A stretch of 45,609 nucleotides of DNA, taken from the NCBI GenBank assembly GCA_030873995.1, contig GCA_030873995.1_4701.1, one strand, 5' to 3'. Shown in pieces: positions 4,849-41,645 of this stretch (position 1 is its first letter; every line of letters starts with the position of its first letter). The stretch comes from a phage. The notes under the pieces were generated by a model. That model was not told where the DNA came from. It saw nothing but the letters and a program-made list of their open reading frames with translations, and searched no databases. A program made the position numbers and the translations under genes.

Positions 4849-4871
4849 ATTTACTGGACACTATAGAAGGG
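4849..4871 (+). promoter_or_regulatory. phage-RNAP promoter ATTTACTGGACACTATAGAAGGG (capsid promoter)
   Basis: Exact consensus; +1 G at 4866; followed by 5' hairpin GGGAGAAAAGTTCTCCC (4869..4885). Confidence 0.85.
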
Positions 4872-4921: not shown

Positions 4922-6130
4922 ATGTCTACACCGAATACTCTGACTAACGTTGCTGTATCTGCATCCGGTGAGGTTGACAGTCTTCTCATTGAGAAGTTTA
5001 ATGGTAAGGTGAATGAGCAGTACCTGAAAGGTGAGAACATTCTGTCTTACTTTGATGTACAAACTGTTACTGGCACTAACACAGTGAGCAACAAATATTT
5101 GGGCGAAACTGAGTTGCAGGTGCTAGCACCGGGTCAGTCTCCTAATGCCACCCCTACTCAGGCGGATAAAAACCAGTTGGTAATTGATACCACTGTCATT
5201 GCTCGTAACACTGTGGCTCACATCCACGATGTACAAGGTGACATCGATAGCCTGAAACCAAAACTGGCTATGAACCAAGCCAAGCAACTGAAACGTCTGG
5301 AAGACCAGATGGCAATTCAGCAGATGCTGTTAGGCGGTATTGCTAACACCAAGGCCAAACGTGACAAGCCGCGTGTTAAAGGGCATGGCTTCTCTATCAA
5401 CGTTAACGTAACTGAGAGTGAAGCACTGGCTAACCCTCAGTATGTTATGGCTGCGGTAGAGTATGCTCTGGAGCAACAGCTTGAGCAGGAAGTGGACATC
5501 TCTGATGTAGCTATCATGATGCCGTGGAAGTTCTTCAATGCTCTGCGTGATGCAGACCGAATTGTAGATAAGACTTACACTATCAGCCAGTCTGGTGCAA
5601 CCATTAATGGCTTCGTTCTCTCTTCTTATAACTGCCCTGTGATCCCGTCTAACCGGTTCCCTACCTTCGCTCAGAATCAGGCTCACCACCTGTTGTCTAA
5701 TGAAGATAACGGCTATCGTTATGACCCTATCGCAGAGATGAATGGTGCAGTTGCTGTTCTGTTCACTGCCGACGCACTGCTGGTGGGTCGTACCATTGAA
5801 GTGACTGGTGACATCTTCTATGAGAAGAAAGAGAAGACTTATTACATTGACACCTTCATGGCTGAGGGTGCAATCCCTGACCGTTGGGAAGCAGTGTCTG
5901 TAGTCACTACTAAGCGTAATGGTACTACTGGTGTCGCAGATGGAGAAGGCACAGACCACGCCACTGTTCTGTCCCGTGCGCAGCGTAAGGCTGTATATGT
6001 CAAGACCGCAGGTGCTGCGGCTGCATTCTCTGCTGCACCAGCAGGTATCCAAGCGGAAGACCTTGTAGCGGCGGTACGTGCTGTAATGGCAAATGACATC
6101 AAGCCGACTGCACTGAAACCTACTGAGTAA
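4922..6130 (+). CDS. major capsid protein
   Basis: 402 aa; own phage promoter with 5' hairpin upstream, strong hairpin terminator downstream; T7 gp10 position. Confidence 0.85.
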   Translation: MSTPNTLTNVAVSASGEVDSLLIEKFNGKVNEQYLKGENILSYFDVQTVTGTNTVSNKYLGETELQVLAPGQSPNATPTQADKNQLVIDTTVIARNTVAHIHDVQGDIDSLKPKLAMNQAKQLKRLEDQMAIQQMLLGGIANTKAKRDKPRVKGHGFSINVNVTESEALANPQYVMAAVEYALEQQLEQEVDISDVAIMMPWKFFNALRDADRIVDKTYTISQSGATINGFVLSSYNCPVIPSNRFPTFAQNQAHHLLSNEDNGYRYDPIAEMNGAVAVLFTADALLVGRTIEVTGDIFYEKKEKTYYIDTFMAEGAIPDRWEAVSVVTTKRNGTTGVADGEGTDHATVLSRAQRKAVYVKTAGAAAAFSAAPAGIQAEDLVAAVRAVMANDIKPTALKPTE

Positions 6131-6139
6131 TAACCTATG

Positions 6140-6175
6140 CCCTATCTACCTTGCGTAGGTAGGGTTCTTTTGTTT
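6140..6175 (+). terminator. late hairpin terminator after the capsid gene
   Basis: 10-bp stem CCCTATCTAC/GTAGGTAGGG, 5-nt loop, then TTCTTTTGTTT. Confidence 0.75.
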
Positions 6176-6185
6176 AGGAGGATTC

Positions 6186-6926
6186 ATGCCTTTAATTCAA
6201 AATACAAGTGATGTTGGACGTATCATGGCTGAGGCTTCCTTCAATATCATTGATAGCAAGCTGGAAGCAGTTAACCTGTGTATGCGAGCTATTGGTCGTG
6301 AGGGTGTGGATTCCCTTGACTCTGGCGACTTAGATGCTGAAGATGCTAACAAGATTATTGATATTGTCTCACAACGTTTCCAATACAATAAGGGCGGTGG
6401 TTGGTGGTTTAACAGAGAACCTAACTGGTTACTTAAACCTGACACAAATGGTGAAGTGAACATGCCAAACAATTGCCTTGCTGTTCTCCAATGCTATGCT
6501 CTGGGTGAACGTAAAGTCCCTATGACTATGCGCGCAGGTAAACTGTACTCTGTTTGGAATCACACTTTCGACATGTCAAAGTATGTGAATCAGGATGGGC
6601 GTATTAGGTTGACTTTGGTAACATTGCTGCCTTTTGAGCATCTACCTGCAAGCGTAATGCAAGCCATTGCCTATCAGGCTGCCGTAGAGTTTATTGTGTC
6701 TAAAGATGCAGATAAGACTAAACTACAAGCACACCAGCAGATTGCAGCACAATTGATGATTGATGTTCAGTCAGAGCAGTCTTCTCAGAAGAGACTTAAT
6801 ATACTTGTACATAACCCCACTCAGCGCAACTTTGGCATTATGGCAGGTGGCTCTCAGAATGTACCAGCGTTCTCCTATTCACCTTATGACACTTACCCTG
6901 TAAGGCCGTGGGAGGTTGATAGATAA
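6186..6926 (+). CDS. tail tubular protein A (gp11-like)
   Basis: N-terminal block IGREGVDSLDSGDLDAEDANKII...GGGWWFN resembles the T7 gp11 N-terminus as recalled. Confidence 0.75.
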   Translation: MPLIQNTSDVGRIMAEASFNIIDSKLEAVNLCMRAIGREGVDSLDSGDLDAEDANKIIDIVSQRFQYNKGGGWWFNREPNWLLKPDTNGEVNMPNNCLAVLQCYALGERKVPMTMRAGKLYSVWNHTFDMSKYVNQDGRIRLTLVTLLPFEHLPASVMQAIAYQAAVEFIVSKDADKTKLQAHQQIAAQLMIDVQSEQSSQKRLNILVHNPTQRNFGIMAGGSQNVPAFSYSPYDTYPVRPWEVDR

Positions 6927-13002: not shown

Positions 13003-13048
13003 TATACTCAAGGTTTGTCTCACATGTGAGACATGCCTTTATGAATGA
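13003..13048 (+). promoter_or_regulatory. RNase III-type processing site candidate
   Basis: GTTATACTCAAGG - extended hairpin around palindrome 13019..13034 - CCTTTATGAAT; same flanks recur at 39984..40021. Confidence 0.45.
13019..13034 (+). repeat. 16-bp perfect palindrome GTCTCACATGTGAGAC (copy 1)
   Basis: Read directly; flanks extend the stem. Confidence 0.9.
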
Positions 13049-18755: not shown

Positions 18756-20653
18756 TGGCTAAGGCAAGAGAATCACAAGCGGAGGCTCTTGCCAGATGGG
18801 AGATGCTACAGGAGTTACAGCAGACCTTTCCTTACACAGCGGAAGGTTTGCTTCTCTTTGCAGACACAGTTATTCATAACTTGATTGCAGGCAACCCTCA
18901 TCTGATTCGTATGCAGGCTGATATCTTGAAGTTCCTATTCTACGGACACAAGTACCGCCTCATCGAAGCGCCTCGTGGTATCGCTAAGACAACACTATCA
19001 GCAATCTATACGGTATTCCGTATTATTCATGAACCGCATAAGCGTATCATGGTTGTGTCCCAAAACGCCAAGCGAGCAGAGGAAATCGCAGGTTGGGTAG
19101 TTAAAATCTTCCGTGGCTTAGACTTTCTTGAGTTTATGCTGCCGGATATCTACGCTGGGGACCGTGCATCCGTTAAGGCGTTTGAGATTCATTACACCCT
19201 ACGTGGTAGTGATAAGTCTCCTTCTGTATCCTGTTACTCAATCGAAGCAGGTATGCAGGGTGCTCGTGCTGATATTATTCTAGCGGATGACGTAGAGTCG
19301 ATGCAGAATGCTCGTACGGCAGCGGGCCGTGCCTTGCTTGAGGAACTGACTAAGGAGTTTGAATCTATCAACCAGTTTGGGGATATCATTTACCTTGGTA
19401 CACCTCAGAACGTAAACTCTATCTACAACAACCTACCTGCTCGTGGTTACTCTGTTCGTATCTGGACTGCGCGTTACCCTTCAGTAGAGCAAGAGCAATG
19501 TTATGGCGACTTCCTTGCACCTATGATTGTTCAAGATATGAAGGACAACCCAGCACTTCGCTCAGGGTACGGGTTGGATGGTAATAGTGGTGCACCTTGT
19601 GCCCCTGAAATGTATGATGATGAAGTCCTGATTGAGAAGGAAATCTCTCAGGGTGCTGCTAAGTTCCAGCTTCAGTTCATGCTTAACACTCGCATGATGG
19701 ATGCTGACAGATACCCATTACGCCTGAACAATCTAATCTTCACCTCGTTTGGTACAGAGGAAGTCCCTGTGATGCCTACGTGGAGTAATGATTCCATAAA
19801 CATCATTGGTGATGCACCTAAGTATGGTAACAAGCCTACGGATTTCATGTACAGACCTGTAGCTCGCCCATACGAATGGGGTGCTGTCTCCCGCAAGATT
19901 ATGTATATTGACCCTGCGGGTGGTGGTAAGAACGGAGATGAGACGGGTGTAGCCATCATATTCCTGCACGGCACATTCATTTATGTGTATCAGTGCTTTG
20001 GTGTACCTGGCGGATACCGAGAGTCGTCCCTGAATCGCATTGTGCAGGCCGCAAAGCAGGCGGGTGTTAAAGAGGTATTCATTGAGAAGAACTTTGGTCA
20101 TGGAGCGTTTGAGGCGGTAATTAAGCCGTACTTTGAACGAGAGTGGCCTGTAACTCTGGAAGAGGATTACGCCACCGGACAGAAAGAGTTGCGTATCATT
20201 GAGACGCTGGAGCCGCTCATGGCAGCCCATAGGCTTATCTTCAATGCAGAGATGGTGAAGTCAGACTTTGAGTCGGTACAGCACTATCCGCTTGAACTAC
20301 GCATGTCCTACAGTCTTTTCAATCAAATGTCGAACATAACGATTGAGAAGAACAGCCTCCGGCACGATGACCGCCTAGACGCCCTGTATGGCGCTATACG
20401 GCAATTAACTTCTCAGATAGACTATGACGAGGTTACACGGATTAATCGCCTCAGAGCGCAGGAGATGCGCGATTACATCCATGCTATGAATACACCTCAT
20501 CTACGCAGGGCAATGCTATATGGAGATTACGGTACTGAGCGAAGAGTGACCAACACTTCCGTAGCGATGCAGCAGCGAGTTTACGGGCAGAACTGCCGAA
20601 ATAAATCGGCAAGCAGAAATACACTTTCTGCAAGGATTTCAAGGACTTATTAA
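18755..20653 (+). CDS. terminase large subunit
   Basis: 632 aa, T7 gp19-like; AAGGAGG RBS; start overlaps upstream stop. Confidence 0.9.
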   Translation: MAKARESQAEALARWEMLQELQQTFPYTAEGLLLFADTVIHNLIAGNPHLIRMQADILKFLFYGHKYRLIEAPRGIAKTTLSAIYTVFRIIHEPHKRIMVVSQNAKRAEEIAGWVVKIFRGLDFLEFMLPDIYAGDRASVKAFEIHYTLRGSDKSPSVSCYSIEAGMQGARADIILADDVESMQNARTAAGRALLEELTKEFESINQFGDIIYLGTPQNVNSIYNNLPARGYSVRIWTARYPSVEQEQCYGDFLAPMIVQDMKDNPALRSGYGLDGNSGAPCAPEMYDDEVLIEKEISQGAAKFQLQFMLNTRMMDADRYPLRLNNLIFTSFGTEEVPVMPTWSNDSINIIGDAPKYGNKPTDFMYRPVARPYEWGAVSRKIMYIDPAGGGKNGDETGVAIIFLHGTFIYVYQCFGVPGGYRESSLNRIVQAAKQAGVKEVFIEKNFGHGAFEAVIKPYFEREWPVTLEEDYATGQKELRIIETLEPLMAAHRLIFNAEMVKSDFESVQHYPLELRMSYSLFNQMSNITIEKNSLRHDDRLDALYGAIRQLTSQIDYDEVTRINRLRAQEMRDYIHAMNTPHLRRAMLYGDYGTERRVTNTSVAMQQRVYGQNCRNKSASRNTLSARISRTY

Positions 20654-20674
20654 TTACTGGACACTATAGAAGGA
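20652..20674 (+). promoter_or_regulatory. phage-RNAP promoter after terminase
   Basis: AATTACTGGACACTATAGAAGGA; +1 G at 20669. Confidence 0.8.
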
Positions 20675-20805
20675 AGGCCCAGATAATAAGAGAAATAACA
20701 AGGATAATATAGTTAACCTAGGTTATATAGGTTACTATAGTATGGGTGTACTCCTGTACACCCTATTCCTACTTACTATTTACTTATATGTATAAGGAGT
20801 ATTAG

Positions 20806-21087
20806 ATGGCTAATGATTATAGTGATCAACCTTTAACTGGTCGATATGACCGTAAGCAGATTACACCGACCAGTGAGGCATTAATGCTCCCTGTTGTTAC
20901 AGAGGAGTCTATTACGAAGAAAGCCAATGTTATCAATGATGCAACCAAATCTGGTAAACAGAAAGCAGCAATGGTATGTCGTCCTGTAGGTGGCACTCTT
21001 GAGGTTGCCATTGCTACTGGTAGCAAAGAGGATGCAGATTGGTTGTCTGTTAAAATGGACAGCGTTGGTCTTATTACACCGGCTTAA
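20806..21087 (+). CDS. hypothetical protein, tandem paralog A
   Basis: 93 aa; shares SGKQK(A/G)AMV...(V/I)AIA(T/R)GS...D.W with 21105..21392; AAGGAG RBS. Confidence 0.5.
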   Translation: MANDYSDQPLTGRYDRKQITPTSEALMLPVVTEESITKKANVINDATKSGKQKAAMVCRPVGGTLEVAIATGSKEDADWLSVKMDSVGLITPA

Positions 21088-26999: not shown

Positions 27000-27686
27000 C
27001 CAAAGGTGGTCACAAAGTAACCAAAGTCAAAATTTTGATGTAGGCGTGTGTGAGGTGTCTCGCCCTCGCCCTCGCCGGGTTGTCCCCATAGGGTGGCCTG
27101 AGGGAATCCGTCTTCGACGGGCAGGGCTGATGTACTCCTTGCCTAGTACAAGGGAGGCGGAGTGAACGCCTGGGACGGCCTAGGGAATGGCTTAGTGGTG
27201 GACAAGGTGATTACCTTAGTGAAGCCTCTTAGTGCATTCCTTAGGCCATTCAGGGCGTTTATGAGGTATTGACAGGGTGGATGGGTGTGGGCTATCTGTT
27301 CGTTTCGCTACGCTTCACTCACTGCTCCTCACTTCGTTCGTCGCTGCGGTAGCCTGATGTGTACCTTAGGTTATTACTTGATGGATAGCTTAGGTTAGCC
27401 TTAGTGGATTACCTTAGTTAAAGCCTTAGTGCTTCACTTAGTATCAGCTTAGTAGTGTACCTTAGTCAGACTTAGTGTCTTCTCTTAGTGATTGCATAGC
27501 TAAAGCTATAAGATGCAAATAGGTCGCGGTCGGTAGACCGCTAAAGAAAGAGAATGGTAATAAGATGCAGTAGGAGGAACACCAGAAACCTAGCCAACCT
27601 AAGCTATCCTAGCTCTATATCTATTGCTTTTCCTTAGTCTAACACGTTAGACAACCTATCTTATTCTTAGTGATGGTAACTTAGTG

Positions 27687-27715
27687 TTGACAAGATAATC
27701 TTAGTGTAATACTAT
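27687..27715 (+). promoter_or_regulatory. sigma70-type early promoter candidate
   Basis: TTGACA, 17-bp spacer, TACTAT; first strong host-type promoter after the repeat-rich terminal region. Confidence 0.55.
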
Positions 27716-30482: not shown

Positions 30483-33110
30483 ATGCAAGACCTACACGCT
30501 ATTCAACTTCAACTTGAAGAAGAAATGTTTAACGGAGGTATCCGTCGCTTTGAAGCGGACCAACAACGCCAGATTGCATCCGGTAATGAATCCGACACGG
30601 CATGGAATCGCCGCTTATTGTCTGAGTTAATCGCGCCAATGGCTGAAGGCATTCAGGCATACAAGGAAGAGTATGAAGGTAAAAGAGGCCGTGCACCGCG
30701 TGCATTAGCTTTCATTAACTGCGTAGAAAACGAAGTGGCAGCATATATCACGATGAAAATCGTTATGGATATGCTGAACACGGATGTAACCTTGCAGGCT
30801 ATAGCCATGAATGTAGCTGACCGCATTGAGGACCAAGTACGTTTTAGCAAGCTGGAAGGTCACGCCGCCAAATACTTTGAGAAAGTTAAGAAGTCACTTA
30901 AGGCAAGTAAGACTAAATCATATCGCCATGCGCACAACGTAGCGGTCGTGGCTGAGAAGTCAGTAGCTGACCGTGACGCTGATTTCTCTCGCTGGGAGGC
31001 GTGGCCTAAAGATACCTTGCTACAAATCGGTATGACCTTGCTAGAAATACTGGAAAATAGTGTATTCTTCAATGGTCAGCCTGTCTTTCTTCGCACCTTG
31101 CGCACTAATGGTGGCAAGCATGGCGTTTACTACTTACAGACTAGCGAACACGTGGGTGAATGGATAACTGCATTTAAAGAGCACGTAGCTCAGCTGAGTC
31201 CAGCCTATGCGCCTTGCGTTATTCCTCCTCGTCCGTGGGTTTCTCCGTTTAATGGTGGCTTCCATACCGAGAAAGTGGCGAGTCGTATTCGTCTGGTTAA
31301 AGGAAACCGCGAGCACGTCCGCAAGCTGACCAAAAAGCAAATGCCAGCGGTTTACAAGGCTGTTAACGCTTTGCAGGCGACTAAGTGGCAGGTTAATAAA
31401 GAGGTTTTGCAGGTAGTAGAGGACGTTATCCGTCTCGACCTTGGTTATGGTGTGCCTTCCTTTAAACCGCTCATCGACCGTGAGAACAAGCCAGCTAATC
31501 CAGTGCCGTTAGAGTTCCAGCACCTGCGAGGCCGTGAACTTAAAGAGATGCTAACGCCGGAACAATGGCAAGCCTTCATCAACTGGAAAGGCGAATGTAC
31601 CAAGCTGTATACCGCTGAAACTAAGCGCGGCAGCAAGTCGGCGGCAACCGTTCGTATGGTCGGGCAGGCCCGTAAATACAGCCAGTTTGACGCAATATAC
31701 TTCGTGTATGCACTGGATAGCCGTTCACGCGTTTATGCGCAATCTAGCACGCTCTCGCCGCAATCAAACGACTTAGGCAAGGCATTGCTCCGTTTTACCG
31801 AAGGGCAGCGTCTTGATAGCGCTGAGGCGCTTAAGTGGTTTTTGGTGAACGGGGCGAATAACTGGGGTTGGGATAAGAAAACTTTTGACGTGCGCACCTC
31901 TAACGTGCTGGATGGCGAATTTCAAGACATGTGCCGCGACATTGCAGCCGATCCGCTGACCTTCACTCAATGGGTAAATGCTGATTCCCCTTACGGCTTC
32001 CTTGCATGGTGCTTTGAATATGCGCGTTATCTGGATGCACTGGATGAAGGCACGCAAGACCAATTCATGACGCACCTACCCGTCCATCAAGACGGTAGTT
32101 GCTCTGGTATCCAGCACTATAGCGCGATGTTACGCGATGAAGTAGGTGCGAAAGCAGTAAACCTTAAGCCTTCTGACTTCCCTCAAGATATTTATGGCGC
32201 GGTTGCGCAGGTTGTTATCCAGAAGAATTACGCCTACATGAATGCAGACGATGCAGAGACTTTCACATCTGGAAGCGTCACACTTACAGGTGCAGAACTG
32301 CGTAGCATGGCTAGTGCGTGGGATATGATAGGAATAACTCGCGGATTGACCAAAAAGCCCGTAATGACACTACCTTATGGCAGCACACGTCTAACCTGCC
32401 GTGAATCAGTGATTGATTATATCGTTGATTTGGAAGAAAAAGAGGCCCAACGAGCTATTGCGGAAGGGCGTACCGCCAATCCTGTACACCCTTTTGATAA
32501 TGACCGTAAGGACAGCCTGACACCTAGCGCAGCTTATAACTATATGACAGCTTTAATCTGGCCTTCTATTTCGGAAGTGGTTAAAGCTCCTATAGTGGCA
32601 ATGAAAATGATTCGTCAGCTTGCCCGTTTCGCAGCTAAAAGGAATGAAGGCTTAGAGTATACCTTGCCTACTGGCTTCATCTTGCAACAAAAGATTATGG
32701 CTACTGATATGCTCCGCGTATCCACTTGCCTGATGGGAGAAATCAAGATGAGTCTACAGATTGAAACGGACGTAGTGGATGAAACGGCTATGATGGGCGC
32801 TGCTGCTCCTAACTTTGTGCATGGTCATGATGCCAGTCACCTTATCTTAACAGTCTGCGACCTTGTTGATAAAGGGATTACATCTATCGCAGTCATTCAT
32901 GATTCTTTCGGTACTCACGCAGGCCGTACAGCCGATCTTCGTGATAGCTTAAGGGCAGAAATGGTGAAGATGTATCAAGGCCGTAATGCCCTGCAAAGCC
33001 TGTTAGATGAGCATGAAGAACGCTGGTTAGTAGACACCGGAATCCAAGTGCCAGAGCAAGGAGAGTTTGACCTTAACGAAATCTTAGTATCTGACTATTG
33101 CTTCGCATAA
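30483..33110 (+). CDS. single-subunit DNA-dependent RNA polymerase (T7/SP6 type)
   Basis: 875 aa; [17 protein letters not shown] and HDSFGT catalytic motifs; C-terminus ends CFA. Confidence 0.95.
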
Positions 33111-33118
33111 TATTAATA

Positions 33119-33149
33119 GGCCATTCCTTCGGGAGTGGCCTTTTCTTTT
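33119..33149 (+). terminator. intrinsic terminator after the RNAP gene (early terminator analog)
   Basis: 9-bp stem GGCCATTCC/GGAGTGGCC with UUCG tetraloop, then TTTTCTTTT. Confidence 0.8.
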
Positions 33150-33183
33150 ACCTACTACCGGTAACATTTCATTAACATAAAGT

Positions 33184-33199
33184 GTCTCACATGTGAGAC
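33184..33199 (+). repeat. 16-bp perfect palindrome (copy 2), abuts promoter 33202
   Basis: Read directly. Confidence 0.9.
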
Positions 33200-33201
33200 T
33201 T

Positions 33202-33224
33202 ATTTACCGGACACTATAGGATAG
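33202..33224 (+). promoter_or_regulatory. phage-RNAP promoter (origin-flanking, upstream copy)
   Basis: ATTTACCGGACACTATAGGATAG; C at -11; palindrome 33184..33199 abuts it. Confidence 0.75.
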
Positions 33225-33364
33225 CCGTCGGAGACGGGAAAGAAAGGGAAGATAAAGGATATAAAGGAAGTAATAGGTATTAAAGGTTATATAGGTTATC
33301 TAGGAATACCTATTACCTTCTTCTTTCCTCTTATTACCACTTAGAGGAAGGGCAGATCTAGGTT
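33225..33364 (+). other. candidate primary origin of replication: AT/purine-rich repeat region between twin phage promoters
   Basis: GAAAGAAAGGGAAGATAAAGGATATAAAGGAAG and AGGTTATATAGGTTA repeats with a long imperfect inverted repeat; same arrangement as the T7 primary origin. Confidence 0.45.
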
Positions 33365-33380
33365 GTCTCACATGTGAGAC
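33365..33380 (+). repeat. 16-bp perfect palindrome (copy 3), abuts promoter 33386
   Basis: Read directly. Confidence 0.9.
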
Positions 33381-33385
33381 TTCGT

Positions 33386-33408
33386 ATTTACCGGACAGTA
33401 TAGATAAG
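33386..33408 (+). promoter_or_regulatory. phage-RNAP promoter (origin-flanking, downstream copy)
   Basis: ATTTACCGGACAGTATAGATAAG; G at -5; palindrome 33365..33380 abuts it. Confidence 0.6.
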
Positions 33409-33433: not shown

Positions 33434-33562
33434 ATGCGTAACTTTGAGAAGATGACCCGTAAAGCTAACCGTTTTGACATGGAAGAAGGGCAGAAGAAAG
33501 GCAAGAAGCTGAATAAACCTGTCCGTGACCGTGCATCTAAACGCGCTGCGTGGGAGTTCTAA
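33434..33562 (+). CDS. T7 gp1.1-like small basic protein
   Basis: 42 aa MRNFEKMTRKANR... matches the T7 gp1.1 N-terminus as recalled; same position after RNAP and twin promoters. Confidence 0.6.
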   Translation: MRNFEKMTRKANRFDMEEGQKKGKKLNKPVRDRASKRAAWEF

Positions 33563-33565
33563 GTT

Positions 33566-35554
33566 ATGGCTATTATTCAGAATGTACCGTGTCCTGCTTG
33601 CCAAAAGAACGGACATGATATTACTGGCAATCATTTAATGATCTTTGACGACGGGGCAGGGTACTGTAACCGTGGTCACTTCCATGATAACGGTAAACCT
33701 TATTACCACAAGCCGGAAGGTGGCATCGAGATAACCGAGTTACCTATTACTGGCAATATCAAATATACACCTTCTCAATTCAAAGAAATGGAGAAGGAAG
33801 GGAAGATAAGCGACCCTAAGCTACGCGCCATCGCACTTGGTGGTATGCGTATGAAAGACCGTTGGGAGGTTATGAATGAGCAAGAAAGGGCAGACCAAGA
33901 AGCAGAGTGGAAACTTGATGTTGAATGGTTCCTCACGCTTAAGCGTAAGAACCTTGTATCCCGTCACATTCGAGGTGACATCGCAGCAATGTACGATGTG
34001 CGCGTTGGACACGATGAAGAGGGAAGAGTCAACCGTCACTATTATCCACGATATGAAAAGGGTGTGTTTGTTGGAGCAAAATGCCGGACGTTGCCGAAGG
34101 ATTTTAAGTTCGGACACCTAGGTAAACTCTTTGGTATGCAAGACCTTTTCGGTATGAACACTTTGTCTCACGTGTTAGACAAGGGGAGACGAAAGGATTG
34201 CTTGCTTATTGTAGGCGGTGAACTTGATGCACTAGCAGCGCAGCAGATGCTCCTTGATTCTGCCAAAGGTACTAAGTGGGAAGGTCAGCCATACCATGTA
34301 TGGTCTGTCAATAAAGGTGAGTCTTGCCTTGAAGAGATAGTGCAAAACCGTGAGCACATAGCCCAATTCAAGAAGATTATATGGGGCTTTGATGGCGACG
34401 AGGTGGGGCAGAAGCAGAACCAACAAGCTGCTCGCCTGTTTCCTGGCAAATCCTACATCCTCGAATATCCATCTGGTTGCAAAGATGCTAACAAGGCATT
34501 GATGGCTGGCAAGGCTAAAGAGTTTGTAGATGCATGGTTTAATGCCAAGTCATCTGATGAAGTCTTTGGTAGCCAGATTAAATCTATCGCATCTCAAAGG
34601 GATAAGCTCAAGGCTGCACGTCCAGAGCAAGGACTATCATGGCCTTGGCCTAAGCTGAACAAGGTAACGCTAGGTATTCGTAAGAACCAACTTATCATTG
34701 TAGGCGCAGGCTCTGGTGTAGGTAAGACTGAGTTCCTTCGTGAAGTAGTTAAGCACCTCATTGAAGAACACGGTGAATCTGTAGGCATCATTTCTACAGA
34801 AGACCCGATGGTCAAGGTGTCCCGTGCTTTTATCGGCAAGTGGATTGATAAGCGTATTGAGTTACCGCCAACCAACGACCCGAAAGAAGATGGATACCGT
34901 GAGGTGTTCGACTACACCGAGGAAGAGGCTAACGCCGCCATTGATTATGTAGCTGATACAGGTAAGCTGTTTGTAGCTGACCTAGAGGGTGACTATTCGA
35001 TGGAAAAGGTAGAGCAAACTTGCCTAGAGTTTGAGGCTATGGGCATTTCTAATATCATCATTGATAACTTAACGGGGATTAAATTAGATGAGCGTGCTTT
35101 TGGTGGGAAGGTTGGTGCACTTGATGAATGCGTCAAGCGGATTGGTACTATCAAAGACCGACACCCGGTTACTATATTCCTTGTATCACACCTTACACGT
35201 CCTCCGGCAAACCGTACCCAACACGAAGAAGGTGGCGAGGTTATCCTTTCTGACTTCCGAGGTTCAGGCGCTATCGGATTCTGGGCATCTTACGCCTTGG
35301 GGATTGAGCGTAATACAAGAGCTGAAACGCTTGATGAACGGACTACCACGTACATCTCATGTGTCAAAGACCGCGACCAAGGTATCTACACTGGAACCAA
35401 GGTCATGCTTAAGGGTGACATTCAAACCGGACGTTTAATGGAACCACAAGCCCGTACTAAGTCATTTGATACAGGTGAAGCAAGGCAACAAGAAGTGCCG
35501 GATTTACCGGACACTATAGAAGAGACAACTTTTGACGATGAACAGGAGTTTTAA
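33566..35554 (+). CDS. DNA primase/helicase (gp4-like)
   Basis: 662 aa; N-terminal Cys4 zinc ribbon, Walker A GAGSGVGKT; acidic C-terminus ending DDEQEF. Confidence 0.9.
   Translation: MAIIQNVPCPACQKNGHDITGNHLMIFDDGAGYCNRGHFHDNGKPYYHKPEGGIEITELPITGNIKYTPSQFKEMEKEGKISDPKLRAIALGGMRMKDRWEVMNEQERADQEAEWKLDVEWFLTLKRKNLVSRHIRGDIAAMYDVRVGHDEEGRVNRHYYPRYEKGVFVGAKCRTLPKDFKFGHLGKLFGMQDLFGMNTLSHVLDKGRRKDCLLIVGGELDALAAQQMLLDSAKGTKWEGQPYHVWSVNKGESCLEEIVQNREHIAQFKKIIWGFDGDEVGQKQNQQAARLFPGKSYILEYPSGCKDANKALMAGKAKEFVDAWFNAKSSDEVFGSQIKSIASQRDKLKAARPEQGLSWPWPKLNKVTLGIRKNQLIIVGAGSGVGKTEFLREVVKHLIEEHGESVGIISTEDPMVKVSRAFIGKWIDKRIELPPTNDPKEDGYREVFDYTEEEANAAIDYVADTGKLFVADLEGDYSMEKVEQTCLEFEAMGISNIIIDNLTGIKLDERAFGGKVGALDECVKRIGTIKDRHPVTIFLVSHLTRPPANRTQHEEGGEVILSDFRGSGAIGFWASYALGIERNTRAETLDERTTTYISCVKDRDQGIYTGTKVMLKGDIQTGRLMEPQARTKSFDTGEARQQEVPDLPDTIEETTFDDEQEF
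35502..35524 (+). promoter_or_regulatory. phage-RNAP promoter embedded in the primase/helicase C-terminal coding tail
   Basis: ATTTACCGGACACTATAGAAGAG, encodes DLPDTIEE. Confidence 0.75.
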
Positions 35555-35732: not shown

Positions 35733-35748
35733 GTCTCACATGTGAGAC
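35733..35748 (+). repeat. 16-bp perfect palindrome (copy 4), extended stem
   Basis: Read directly. Confidence 0.9.
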
Positions 35749-35787
35749 AGGCTCTTATTAAGTACATTAAATAACTGGAGATTGATT

Positions 35788-36471
35788 ATGTATAAATTAG
35801 TATTGAATGTAGGTGATTATGTTCGTAACATCAATGAAGCCTCACGTCGTTATCGTTGCCGTGGTGTAGTGGCTCGTGTAAGTGAGAACATGTATCATGT
35901 AGAATATGATGATGGTATTAAGGCTTCTTATCACAAGAAAACCGCACATAAATATCTTGAAAAGGTTGTAGAGGTAAACAATCAATGTAAGTGCATACAT
36001 GATGAGGTTTGCGATAAATGTGCTCGCCAGATGCTTAAGAATTTCCTAGCCCCTCTTTATTATGGTGCTGGTCCTCAAACACTAGCAGAGTACATGGCAG
36101 AAAAGAAAACCACACTCAAGAAAGAGCGTCGCAATGTAATCACTGGTAAGACTCAAAGTGGGATGATTAAGCAATGTGGCACTGCATTAGGTGTTACACA
36201 GTTCAATACTCGTGCATTGGGTAAATCCACAGGGCAAGCTATGGTGAAAATTGGTGAAGCTATGATGCACCCAAATGTGCCTGTGCGAATCTTGGATGTT
36301 GACCATGCAATCACAGAGCATGGCACACCACGGCGTGTAGCTAATAATCATTTCGCCGACACTATAGAAGGTATTATTCGTAAGCAAGGGTTGAAGGGTC
36401 TTCACATCTTAAATGGTGAAGAATTACTGTACCTACCTATCGTTACTGAAGAAACATACGTGAATATCTAA
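35788..36471 (+). CDS. hypothetical protein (227 aa)
   Basis: GGAG RBS before ATG 35788; Cys cluster CKCIHDEVCDKC; contains a degenerate promoter-like site. Confidence 0.55.
   Translation: MYKLVLNVGDYVRNINEASRRYRCRGVVARVSENMYHVEYDDGIKASYHKKTAHKYLEKVVEVNNQCKCIHDEVCDKCARQMLKNFLAPLYYGAGPQTLAEYMAEKKTTLKKERRNVITGKTQSGMIKQCGTALGVTQFNTRALGKSTGQAMVKIGEAMMHPNVPVRILDVDHAITEHGTPRRVANNHFADTIEGIIRKQGLKGLHILNGEELLYLPIVTEETYVNI
36350..36372 (+). promoter_or_regulatory. degenerate promoter-like site inside CDS 35788..36471
   Basis: ATTTCGCCGACACTATAGAAGGT; four mismatches at -13 to -10. Confidence 0.25.
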
Positions 36472-36876: not shown

Positions 36877-36892
36877 GTCTCACGTGTGAGAC
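36877..36892 (+). repeat. 16-bp near-palindrome GTCTCACGTGTGAGAC (copy 5), extended stem
   Basis: Read directly. Confidence 0.9.
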
Positions 36893-40051: not shown

Positions 40052-40074
40052 ATTTACTGGACACTATAGAAGGA
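40052..40074 (+). promoter_or_regulatory. phage-RNAP promoter
   Basis: ATTTACTGGACACTATAGAAGGA exact consensus; +1 G at 40069. Confidence 0.85.
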
Positions 40075-40138
40075 AAGCCTAGGTAATCTAGGTTTATAAG
40101 GTAGTATGGGTAATTAAGTAAATATAGGAGATATAAAT

Positions 40139-40516
40139 ATGTCAATGGTAACTACTCTGGTATTCGTAGCTCAATACTTTCGTGGTTTGGCTAACAAGTT
40201 CAAAGCTAAGGCTATCAAAGCTATTGAGTCTCGCATTGAAGCAGTACATGCAGAGCAGTTTGAAGTTGAAGAACATCGTAGTTCTCAAATGATTGACTGC
40301 CACAATCGCTACTATGCATCTCGTGATGACCTTAATGCACGCCAAGTCAAAGAGGTTGAAGAGATGCTGGCACGTCACCAGCAAGAGCGAGACAGCCTGA
40401 AAGCTGAATTTGAAGAGAACAAGGCATCCATCGCCCTTGTACATCAAGCCGCATCTGACAGCCTGAAGAAAGAGATTGTTATGCTGGAAATTGAGTTAGA
40501 CAACCTGACCAAATAA
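40139..40516 (+). CDS. hypothetical coiled-coil protein (125 aa)
   Basis: Own promoter at 40052 and AT-rich leader with GGAG RBS. Confidence 0.55.
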   Translation: MSMVTTLVFVAQYFRGLANKFKAKAIKAIESRIEAVHAEQFEVEEHRSSQMIDCHNRYYASRDDLNARQVKEVEEMLARHQQERDSLKAEFEENKASIALVHQAASDSLKKEIVMLEIELDNLTK

Positions 40517-41629: not shown

Positions 41630-41645
41630 GTCTCACGTGTGAGAC
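41630..41645 (+). repeat. 16-bp near-palindrome GTCTCACGTGTGAGAC (copy 6), 15 bp upstream of promoter 41661
   Basis: Read directly. Confidence 0.9.

Follow-up and report, generated by a model that had tools for sequence, protein, structure and literature searches.

The phage contig GCA_030873995.1_4701.1 (assembly GCA_030873995.1), a stretch of 45,609 nucleotides (nt) that is called the window below, carries a short non-coding spacer between the gene for its single-subunit RNA polymerase (RNAP) and the gene for gp8, a homologue of T7 gp1.1. Positions 33,184 to 33,408 of this spacer, 225 bp that we refer to as the module, had been put forward in an initial annotation as the probable primary replication origin. 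The window represents a Vectrevirus genome of the K1-5/K1E type (Autographiviridae, Molineuxvirinae), onto which the ends of K1-5 could be mapped. The 234-bp direct terminal repeat of K1-5 is present as a single copy (27060-27293), and the window is therefore a circularly permuted assembly in which the terminal repeat has collapsed. In unit-genome coordinates the module lies at 6125-6349, which is 13.4-13.8% from the left end. The 341 bases around it are 99.7% identical to Escherichia phage EEc2, 93-99% identical to around 75 other Vectrevirus genomes (K1-5 and K1E among them) and ~70% identical to the SP6-like Salmonella phages and related Klebsiella phages. In the eight annotated records that were examined nothing is marked within the RNAP-gp8 spacer except the terminator after the RNAP gene, and the searchable literature yielded no mapped replication origin or replication data for K1-5, K1E or any other SP6-group phage. 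The sequence itself became public with the genomes of K1-5 and SP6; among the records and papers that could be reached, which do not cover two primary genome papers, the module is undescribed and unannotated.

To describe the module across relatives, a set of 37 distinct RNAP-to-gp8 spacers was assembled, drawn from 18 GenBank records and 25 IMG/VR contigs. The sample includes Acadevirus (Proteus phages) and three lineages in which the C-terminus of RNAP is only 75-77% identical and the promoters differ. The elements named in the initial annotation (RNAP gene, terminator, palindrome, promoter, repeats, palindrome, promoter and gp1.1-like gene) are all in place, as listed in Table 1 together with the further features that we recognized. 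The order of terminator, palindrome, promoter, small hairpin, AGG units, pyrimidine-rich stretch, second promoter and gene 1.1 homologue is kept in all 37 sequences.

Table 1. Features of the RNAP-gp8 spacer, its flanking genes and two related promoter regions (positions in the window; promoters and hairpins are predicted)
Feature	Position	Strand	Remarks
Phage single-subunit RNAP gene (upstream flank)	30483-33110	+	Open reading frame of 875 amino acids (aa); Pfam RNA_pol 4e-89, RPOL_N 1.5e-31
Intrinsic terminator closing the early (RNAP) gene	33118-33151 (hairpin 33118-33141)	+	10-bp stem with 6 G-C pairs, followed by T-run TTTCTTTT
Conserved block TACCTACTACCGGTAACATTTCATTAACA	33149-33179	+	Contains inverted repeat unit TACCTAYTACC, the complement of GGTAATAGGTA
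Palindrome 1, GTCTCACATGTGAGAC	33184-33199	+	Perfect, 16 nt; 6-bp stem and 4-nt loop if single-stranded; ends 2 nt upstream of P1
Promoter P1, ATTTACCGGACACTATAG	33202-33219	+	SP6-type; exact member of a 12-copy promoter family
5-bp hairpin CCGTC-GGA-GACGG	33225-33237	+	+7 to +19 of the P1 transcript
Purine-rich direct-repeat array	33238-33305	+	G/A-rich lead-in, then six AGG-core units (33255-33305) spaced 9, 10, 9, 9 and 9 nt
Pyrimidine-rich arm	33305-33343	+	Period-10 TATTACCTCT units; imperfect pairing with the repeat array
Third hairpin, CTTTCCTCT / AGAGGAAGG	33323-33351	+	Minimum free energy structure
Palindrome 2	33365-33380	+	Same sequence as palindrome 1; ends 5 nt before P2
Promoter P2, ATTTACCGGACAGTATAG	33386-33403	+	SP6-type; G replaces C at -5; followed by a 30-nt leader
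gp8, T7 gp1.1 homologue	33434-33562	+	Basic protein of 42 aa; Pfam Phage_1_1 8e-16; tblastn 56% identity to T7 gene 1.1
Primase-helicase gene (downstream flank)	33566-35554	+	Pfam DnaB_C and Toprim_2; annotated so in relatives
Related module	20652-20740	+	Promoter overlaps the end of the T7-type large terminase gene; AGG-core repeats including the shared 15-mer
Related module	40052-40140	+	Promoter ~280 nt downstream of the DNA polymerase gene; AGG units spaced 10, 9 and 9 nt; syntenic with SP6 12542

Comparison with the flanking genes makes clear how strongly the spacer is conserved. Relative to SP6, the spacer of the window shows 75-82% identity, as against 41% at the four-fold degenerate sites of the RNAP gene and 55% at those of the primase-helicase gene; between the window and K1-5 the corresponding values are 98%, 78% and 83%. 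Judged from these sequence comparisons, the whole spacer is under strong purifying selection across the lineages of the subfamily Molineuxvirinae that were sampled. Such conservation contradicts the proposal that the locus holds tandem promoters and nothing else, the origin being elsewhere (e.g. near the DNA polymerase gene) and the repeats being tolerated products of slippage. Short A+T-rich repeats do arise easily through slippage, and an origin at the SP6 DNA polymerase gene was proposed by Dobbins et al. 2004, as far as the account given in PMC4837284 goes. Nevertheless, the phase and number of the repeats and their distance to P1 are retained across lineages with diverged promoters, and SP6 has no change in skew at the polymerase gene, so that we regard this explanation as quite improbable. 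Homing-endonuclease (HNH) genes that were inserted in several relatives are found either behind the pyrimidine arm or behind P2 and do not interrupt the unit that runs from P1 to the arm. More generally, insertions recur in the RNAP-gp8 spacer, which is a hot spot for them: HNH genes follow P2 in UAB_Phi78, PM 93 and VEc3 (NC_047899), in PST_H2 the pyrimidine arm and palindrome 2 are separated by an insertion of ~350 bp, and SE29 has an additional palindrome-promoter unit.

P1 and P2 are two of the 12 matches to the promoter family within the window, where 0.03 are expected by chance. Within each lineage the P1 and P2 sites resemble each other and both carry the promoter type of that lineage, while the type differs from one lineage to another. 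This pattern favours two real promoters, and on this basis we predict P1 and P2 to be genuine phage promoters. By analogy with the SP6 promoter, transcription from P1 would start at the G at 33219. The second promoter was recovered in all lineages and departs from the consensus in most of them. With respect to the promoter set as a whole, two subclasses can be discerned. The first, ATTTACCGGACAC, consists of the promoters at 33202, 33386 and 35502, all three located around gp8 and the primase-helicase gene, and the second, A(T/A)TTACTGGACAC, comprises most of the others (those at 4849, 20652, 22314, 40052, 40515 and 41661 were compared). In addition, P1 starts with GGAT, where GAAG is usual. 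The two subclasses may be the counterpart of the class II and class III promoters of T7.

Several of the elements around the promoters show a more restricted distribution. The terminator, which is annotated as such in MK373771, was found in all lineages, with a stem sequence that differs from one lineage to the next, and a palindrome precedes P1 in every lineage examined. The block between terminator and palindrome 1, in which an inverted repeat (I7) and a direct repeat (D5) were detected, is almost invariant in Vectrevirus, Zindervirus and the Klebsiella-phage clades, and absent from Acadevirus and from sequences L039-L044. Palindrome 2 is confined to the Vectrevirus/Zindervirus/Klebsiella-phage clade, and the part GGAAGGGCAGA of the third-hairpin region is kept in Vectrevirus and SP6. 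The conserved GGGCAG at 33350-33355 holds the only GCA of the element (33352-33354), a trinucleotide which we take to be the recognition site of SP6 primase (presumably that of Tseng et al. 2000); as a trinucleotide is expected here by chance, it carries no weight.

The initial annotation described ~140 bp of A/T- and purine-rich repeats between the promoters. This description holds for parts of the region: the 100-bp core (33250-33349) is 70% A+T, which places it among the top 0.17% of windows of that size, and the left half is 76% purine on the non-template strand (top 0.09%). It does not hold for the spacer as a whole, which at 61% A+T over 140 bp (33224-33363) merely ranks in the top 10%, or for the right half, which is pyrimidine-rich.

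The most regular feature of the core is the array of AGG units, for which Tandem Repeats Finder returned a period of 9. Every one of 14 lineages has several units; of the 75 spacings between them, 50 measure 9 or 10 nt, and the first unit is located at +27/+28 from P1 in most lineages. In the window the array is the densest cluster of WAGGWW (6 per 80 nt, with 0.3 expected), and the unit recurs once in inverted orientation ahead of P1, within block 33149-33179. The array thus possesses what is generally asked of iterons: at least three tandem direct repeats, a conserved core and a regular spacing. Of the 12 promoters of the window, just three (33202, 40052 and 20652) are followed by AGG units at a spacing of 9-10 nt, and such arrays are also found after the three syntenic promoters of SP6 (6118, 12542 and 37773), the last one with six units spaced 18, 10, 10, 10 and 9 nt. 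Two earlier claims bear on this pattern and both could be substantiated. The 15-mer AGGTTATATAGGTTA occurs only at 33284-33298 and 20720-20734, and a shared word of that length was found in none of 300 shuffles; the leader after promoter 40052 indeed carries related repeats (see Table 1). The leader of promoter 20652 (20681-20820) is in addition the most A+T-rich stretch of 140 bp in the genome (71%). A search of viral contigs for the combination of hairpin and repeat outside the RNAP locus recovered the same phages only, plus one chance match in a contig of high G+C content.

The array is nearly invariant in the SP6/Klebsiella group, whereas its 3' pyrimidine partner arm varies and is much less conserved; after promoter 40052 the array has no pairing partner and no long hairpin forms. 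Since the array is far better conserved than the partner arm and occurs without a hairpin at 40052, we conclude from the sequences that it has a function of its own, the pairing of the two halves being a looser, register-free property. One such function could be protein binding, in which the AGG units and their inverted copies would be the sites of a conserved DNA-binding factor that switches three promoters in the transition from middle to late expression, without any role in replication. The direct repeats with roughly helical spacing, the invariant core at a fixed +27/+28 from P1 in most lineages, the inverted unit upstream of P1 and the restriction of the arrays to three promoters that are syntenic in two genera all agree with this idea. 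The repeats remain unchanged when promoter specificity changes and are therefore not decoys for RNAP, an option we rejected because the AGG(T/A) core is retained in lineages with differing promoters; the factor would have to be conserved in the subfamily or in the host. Against it, the units vary outside AGG, a spacing of 9-10 bp drifts around the helix over six units, and no candidate factor or known binding motif was found. To our knowledge T7-group phages do not use regulators of this kind and regulate expression via the binding of lysozyme to the polymerase and via genome entry. Taken together, a purely regulatory array seems improbable to us. Highly doubtful, in our estimate, is a variant that joins the array to replication, in which the AGG repeats would be true iterons for a conserved trans-acting factor that marks three origins, at 13%, 28% and 85% of the genome. 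A candidate for that factor would be the adjacent gp1.1 homologue, a basic protein of 42 aa, but this is a guess; we know of no function for the gp1.1 family in T7.

The transcribed part of the spacer is rich in potential secondary structure. The small hairpin at +7 is present in all 18 distinct sequences with 100% pairing, and its third pair varies between GC (10), AU (4), UA (3) and CG (1), giving a covariation score that was matched in none of 500 shuffles. The same stem recurs within the terminal repeat, where a hairpin CCGTC-TTC-GACGG is found at 27108-27120, and CrRp3 has CCGTC-GGA-GACGG at the same place (325-351 of L052); two such matches occurred in none of 100 shuffles. The long imperfect inverted repeat that had been noticed before was likewise recovered, with arms of 18 nt (33264-33281 and 33305-33322) that are 89% complementary. 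It folds at -23 kcal/mol (z = -2.7, equalled by three of 200 shuffles), the predicted imperfect hairpin comprising ~23 bp. Long hairpins are predicted in all 14 lineages, with z between -2.7 and -7.2 relative to shuffles. Nevertheless, RNAalifold gave no consensus register and no covariation (consensus energy -4.25 kcal/mol, covariation term ~0), and we do not claim the long hairpin as a conserved RNA structure. The non-Watson-Crick positions of the folds are G.U in 49 cases and A.C in 6 on the + strand, and in 10 of the 14 lineages folding is better for the + than for the - strand. The G.U excess hints at structure in the + strand, either RNA or displaced DNA, but this evidence is weak because the folding algorithm favours G.U pairs. 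A search of Rfam 15 gave no match above the gathering score; the best hit was mir-5 on the minus strand (24 bits versus a threshold of 75, E = 0.039) and the remainder had E > 0.6.

These structures raise the question whether the module acts in RNA only. The spacer between P1 and P2 would then provide the gp8 and primase-helicase messages with a structured 5' leader that doubles as a processing signal, while replication would start elsewhere or at any promoter. The +7 hairpin would protect the 5' end, the long hairpin would be cut by host RNase III or would shield the RNA, and the palindromes would serve as intercistronic 3' hairpins. A long hairpin in every lineage, with a duplex of the length predicted here, agrees well with this proposal, as do the prevalence of G.U over A.C and the better folding of the + strand in most lineages. 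The inter-promoter sequence of T7 also folds into a hairpin, with the same z of -2.7 and at the same position, and 5' hairpins are usual in the leaders of this phage and of T7. RNase III requires no positive sequence consensus (PMC1540722). The three intergenic palindrome copies moreover have stem extensions with compensated changes (see below). On the other hand, the missing consensus register and covariation of the long hairpin, the bias of the folding algorithm in the G.U count and the Rfam result (best E = 0.04, far under the gathering score) speak against it, and since the array outconserves the 3' arm and is hairpin-free at 40052, pairing does not explain the repeats or their 9-10-nt spacing. 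We consider a role in RNA only, the strongest alternative to an origin, to be rather unlikely, but an origin and an RNA function are not mutually exclusive and may coexist.

The two palindromes belong to a family that is spread over the genome. Allowing at most three mismatches, GTCTCACATGTGAGAC was found nine times in the window, where 0.23 copies are expected. Eight family copies (13017-13032, 27637-27652, 33184-33199, 33365-33380, 34165-34180, 35733-35748, 36877-36892 and 41630-41645) are syntenic with eight of the nine copies in SP6 (493, 6093, 6264, 7071, 8547, 9383, 14255, 17752 and 30569), as well as with copies in K1-5 and SE29. In each of these last two genomes, cores of two types occur side by side, GTCTCAC..GTGAGAC and GTCCAAC..GTTGGAC; every copy is self-complementary and there are U.G intermediates on the + strand. 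Among 30 copies, the pair types UA/UG/CG and AU/CG were observed at two positions of the stem. The coexistence of core types with retained self-complementarity is a signature of base pairing and not of an operator, and on the same grounds (both types within one genome, each self-complementary, with U.G intermediates) operators for a co-evolving dimeric protein were rejected. For the three intergenic copies the flanks add a stem of ~7 bp that includes G.U pairs, in which the differences from SP6 are compensated. On the evidence of these sequences, the palindromes are base-paired hairpins with a constrained apex that form a genome-wide family and are not specific for an origin. The initial annotation had counted them among the origin elements, a role at odds with eight syntenic hairpins dispersed over the genome. 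Most plausibly they are intercistronic RNA hairpins that act as weak terminators, 3'-end protectors or signals for processing or stability; in a terminator scan both palindromes at the module were flagged as terminator-like. Two of the other copies have a particular setting. The one at 34165-34180 lies within the reading frame of the primase-helicase, around codon 200, and is kept in SP6 (7071), K1-5 (6983) and SE29 (7753). In SP6 an ATG directly precedes it. The copy may mark an internal start (as for T7 gene 4B), or else a pause or processing site. The copy at 35733, in the interval between the primase-helicase gene and its downstream neighbour, marks the start of the most A+T-rich 100 bp of the window (35736-35835, 71%).

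The terminator-like character of palindrome 2 is also relevant to a further explanation, namely that P1 produces a discrete, trans-acting non-coding RNA of ~165-175 nt with three hairpins, which would end at palindrome 2 and a U-rich tail. Such an RNA could, for example, sequester a host RNA-binding protein or 30S subunits via its Shine-Dalgarno-like AGG motifs. Palindrome 2 followed by TTCGTATTT indeed scores as terminator-like, the 7-9 AGG motifs resemble the ribosome-binding sites of the phage itself (e.g. ATAGGAG) and the entire transcribed spacer is strongly conserved. However, palindrome 2 is lacking in Acadevirus and L039-L044, where P1 would read into P2 and gp8; the other two arrays are located in ordinary 5' untranslated regions, and no Rfam match was obtained. 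CsrA requires GGA for binding, and the AGGTA units of most relatives lack it, which makes CsrA sites unlikely as well. We hold a discrete RNA to be very improbable.

Given the above, the module is best compared with the region of the T7 promoters phi1.1A and phi1.1B, of which we consider it the counterpart in the SP6/K1-5 group, i.e. the first control module for middle genes after the early terminator. In T7 these two promoters are the primary origins, phiOR and phi6.5 act as secondary origins once the primary ones have been deleted, and every origin needs a T7 promoter (PMC8373140). In the window, a predicted phage promoter (P1) points into the region, A+T-rich DNA lies downstream of it and the whole is positioned between the RNAP gene and gene 1.1; P1 with the A+T-rich core in this way fits the minimal definition of a T7 origin as a promoter followed by A+T-rich DNA. 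As the likeliest explanation we tentatively propose, at somewhat less than even confidence, that the module is a T7-type, transcription-primed origin in which P1 fires into the purine-rich and A+T-rich repeat array, a reading suggested by position, composition, conservation and the pattern of three sites.

According to this proposal, the phage RNAP would start at P1 (33219) and the nascent RNA would fold the +7 hairpin. The polymerase would then cross the purine-rich, A+T-rich non-template tract, where the transcript, rich in purines, could persist as a hybrid with the pyrimidine-rich template strand and could be extended rightward by the phage DNA polymerase. The displaced + strand might fold via the inverted repeat and the palindrome and take up the primase-helicase, which is encoded just downstream, and priming on that strand would start leftward synthesis. 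The promoters with AGG arrays at 40052 and 20652 would constitute secondary origins, which together with the module would place sites at 13%, 28% and 85% of the genome. P2 would mainly drive gp8 and the primase-helicase gene. A role of the same sequence in RNA, as a stabilised or processed leader, would be compatible with an origin, as T7 combines both at the same place.

A number of observations weigh against the proposed origin. The A+T content of the full spacer is modest, as noted, and the A+T-rich repeats lie between the promoters, whereas the A+T-rich stretch of T7 follows both of them; after P2 there is only the 30-nt leader. We know of no requirement for 9-10-bp repeats in T7 origins, so that the best-conserved feature is left unexplained by the T7 model. 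The +7 hairpin is not specific for an origin, since leaders with a 5' hairpin are common both in these phages and in T7, and all structural signals are on the + strand, which is the mRNA strand, so that functions in RNA only fit equally well. GC and AT skew, both cumulative and in 1-kb windows, rise steadily without inflection in T7 and SP6 and are uninformative, as the known origin of T7 is invisible too. No sequence homology to the T7 origin regions was detected beyond marginal 10-12-mers. The ACCTTCTTCC common to K1-5 and T7 (reached in two of 500 shuffles) was considered too weak, the comparison with SP6 not being significant; an 11/12 match between the P2 leader and the T7 leader (9/500) was too weak and inconsistent, and AGGTTACTATA, shared with the phiOR leader (21/500, and none for SP6), was not significant. 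Finally, Dobbins et al. 2004 suggested a bidirectional origin at the SP6 DNA polymerase gene, in so far as their work is cited in PMC4837284. The array after the DNA polymerase gene (40052) lies near the site so reported, and we have counted this in favour of the three-site pattern. The initial annotation held that a deletion without effect on replication would refute the origin; such a deletion is not decisive, because T7 turns to secondary origins once the primary one is deleted (PMC8373140).

Further repeats were observed at and beside the terminal repeat. Of the 64 CTTAG words in the window, 17 fall within 27215-27700, which covers the right-hand end of the terminal repeat and the sequence beyond it, ten of them in a run with a spacing of 10-13 nt (27389-27484). 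A complementary CCTA-rich stretch (27583-27662) forms the densest cluster of WAGGWW on the minus strand. Short repeat arrays flank the terminal repeat of T7, and the CTTAG run recalls them.

Phages of the K1-5, K1E and SP6 type are used in therapy, in work on capsule targeting and as the source of SP6 RNA polymerase. The analysis provides them with a defined candidate origin of 225 bp and two candidate secondary sites. The separable parts (promoter, 5' hairpin, repeat array, pyrimidine arm and palindrome) ease the mapping of origins and assays of plasmid amplification. If the array proves necessary, T7-type transcription-primed origins can carry a sequence-specific component, which might provide the gp1.1 family with a function; if the repeats are true iterons, promoter and A+T-rich DNA do not suffice for an origin in this branch of the T7 supergroup, and a sequence-specific element is required as well. 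Should the module be no more than a leader or processing signal in RNA, it would be an ordinary one, and it would still matter when the spacer is deleted or recoded in engineered phages, because it is conserved more strongly than the synonymous sites of the flanking essential genes.

The suggestion that the module mirrors the T7 primary origin can be upheld for the flanks, the position, the promoters that fire into an A+T-rich core and the conservation, and not for the order of the elements or for the palindromes, which are not origin-specific. In the T7 record gene 1 ends at 5822, phi1.1A is at 5848, phi1.1B at 5923 and gene 1.1 starts at 6007, so that the promoters lie at 14.6-15% of the genome, close to the position of the module, and the flanks (RNAP gene and gene 1.1 homologue) are the same. 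Both regions have two tandem rightward promoters with a hairpin-forming sequence between them and replication genes downstream, and both possess an A+T-rich stretch: to the 70% of the core described above corresponds a phi1.1B leader of 70-74% (top 0.2-0.3% at 74%). When the elements are matched by position, P1 corresponds to phi1.1A, the long hairpin to R1.1, P2 to phi1.1B and the 30-nt P2 leader to the A+T-rich leader of T7. The module differs in having repeats of 9-10 nt with an AGG core, on a purine-rich strand, where the T7 leader has four TTAAG words instead, in the palindromic hairpin before each promoter, and in the intrinsic terminator that parts it from the RNAP gene, the early terminator of T7 being located after gene 1.3. 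The origin function of T7 is experimentally proven, whereas the module is known from sequence alone.

The T7 hairpin between phi1.1A and phi1.1B is, we assume, the R1.1 RNase III site (presumably that of Dunn & Studier 1983), although the T7 record carries no such annotation. Like R1.1, the long hairpin of the module is formed in the mRNA strand, spans about two helical turns and lies exactly between two promoters after the RNAP gene. Unlike R1.1, it is built from repeats, can adopt several registers, shows no covariation and has unequally conserved arms, and its cleavage is only putative. The related modules can be compared with the T7 secondary origins. Promoter 20652 follows a T7-type terminase gene as phiOR follows gene 19, and both have an A+T-rich leader; the AGG-core repeats in the leaders are a difference, as is the position of promoter 40052 after the DNA polymerase gene instead of an exonuclease gene. 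With the iteron origins of plasmids and lambdoid phages the module shares tandem direct repeats of near-helical spacing beside an A+T-rich segment and inverted repeats, but its units measure 9-10 nt versus the usual 17-22, the AGG core alone is fixed and no initiator protein is known. A promoter that fires into a G- or purine-rich non-template tract is also found in RNA-primed origins, such as those of ColE1 (RNA II) and of the mitochondrial light-strand promoter with its conserved sequence blocks. A purine-rich non-template strand favours persistent RNA-DNA hybrids, and the mitochondrial polymerase is T7-like. As a kind, the module is a T7 origin/promoter region to which a repeat array and a set of hairpins have been added.

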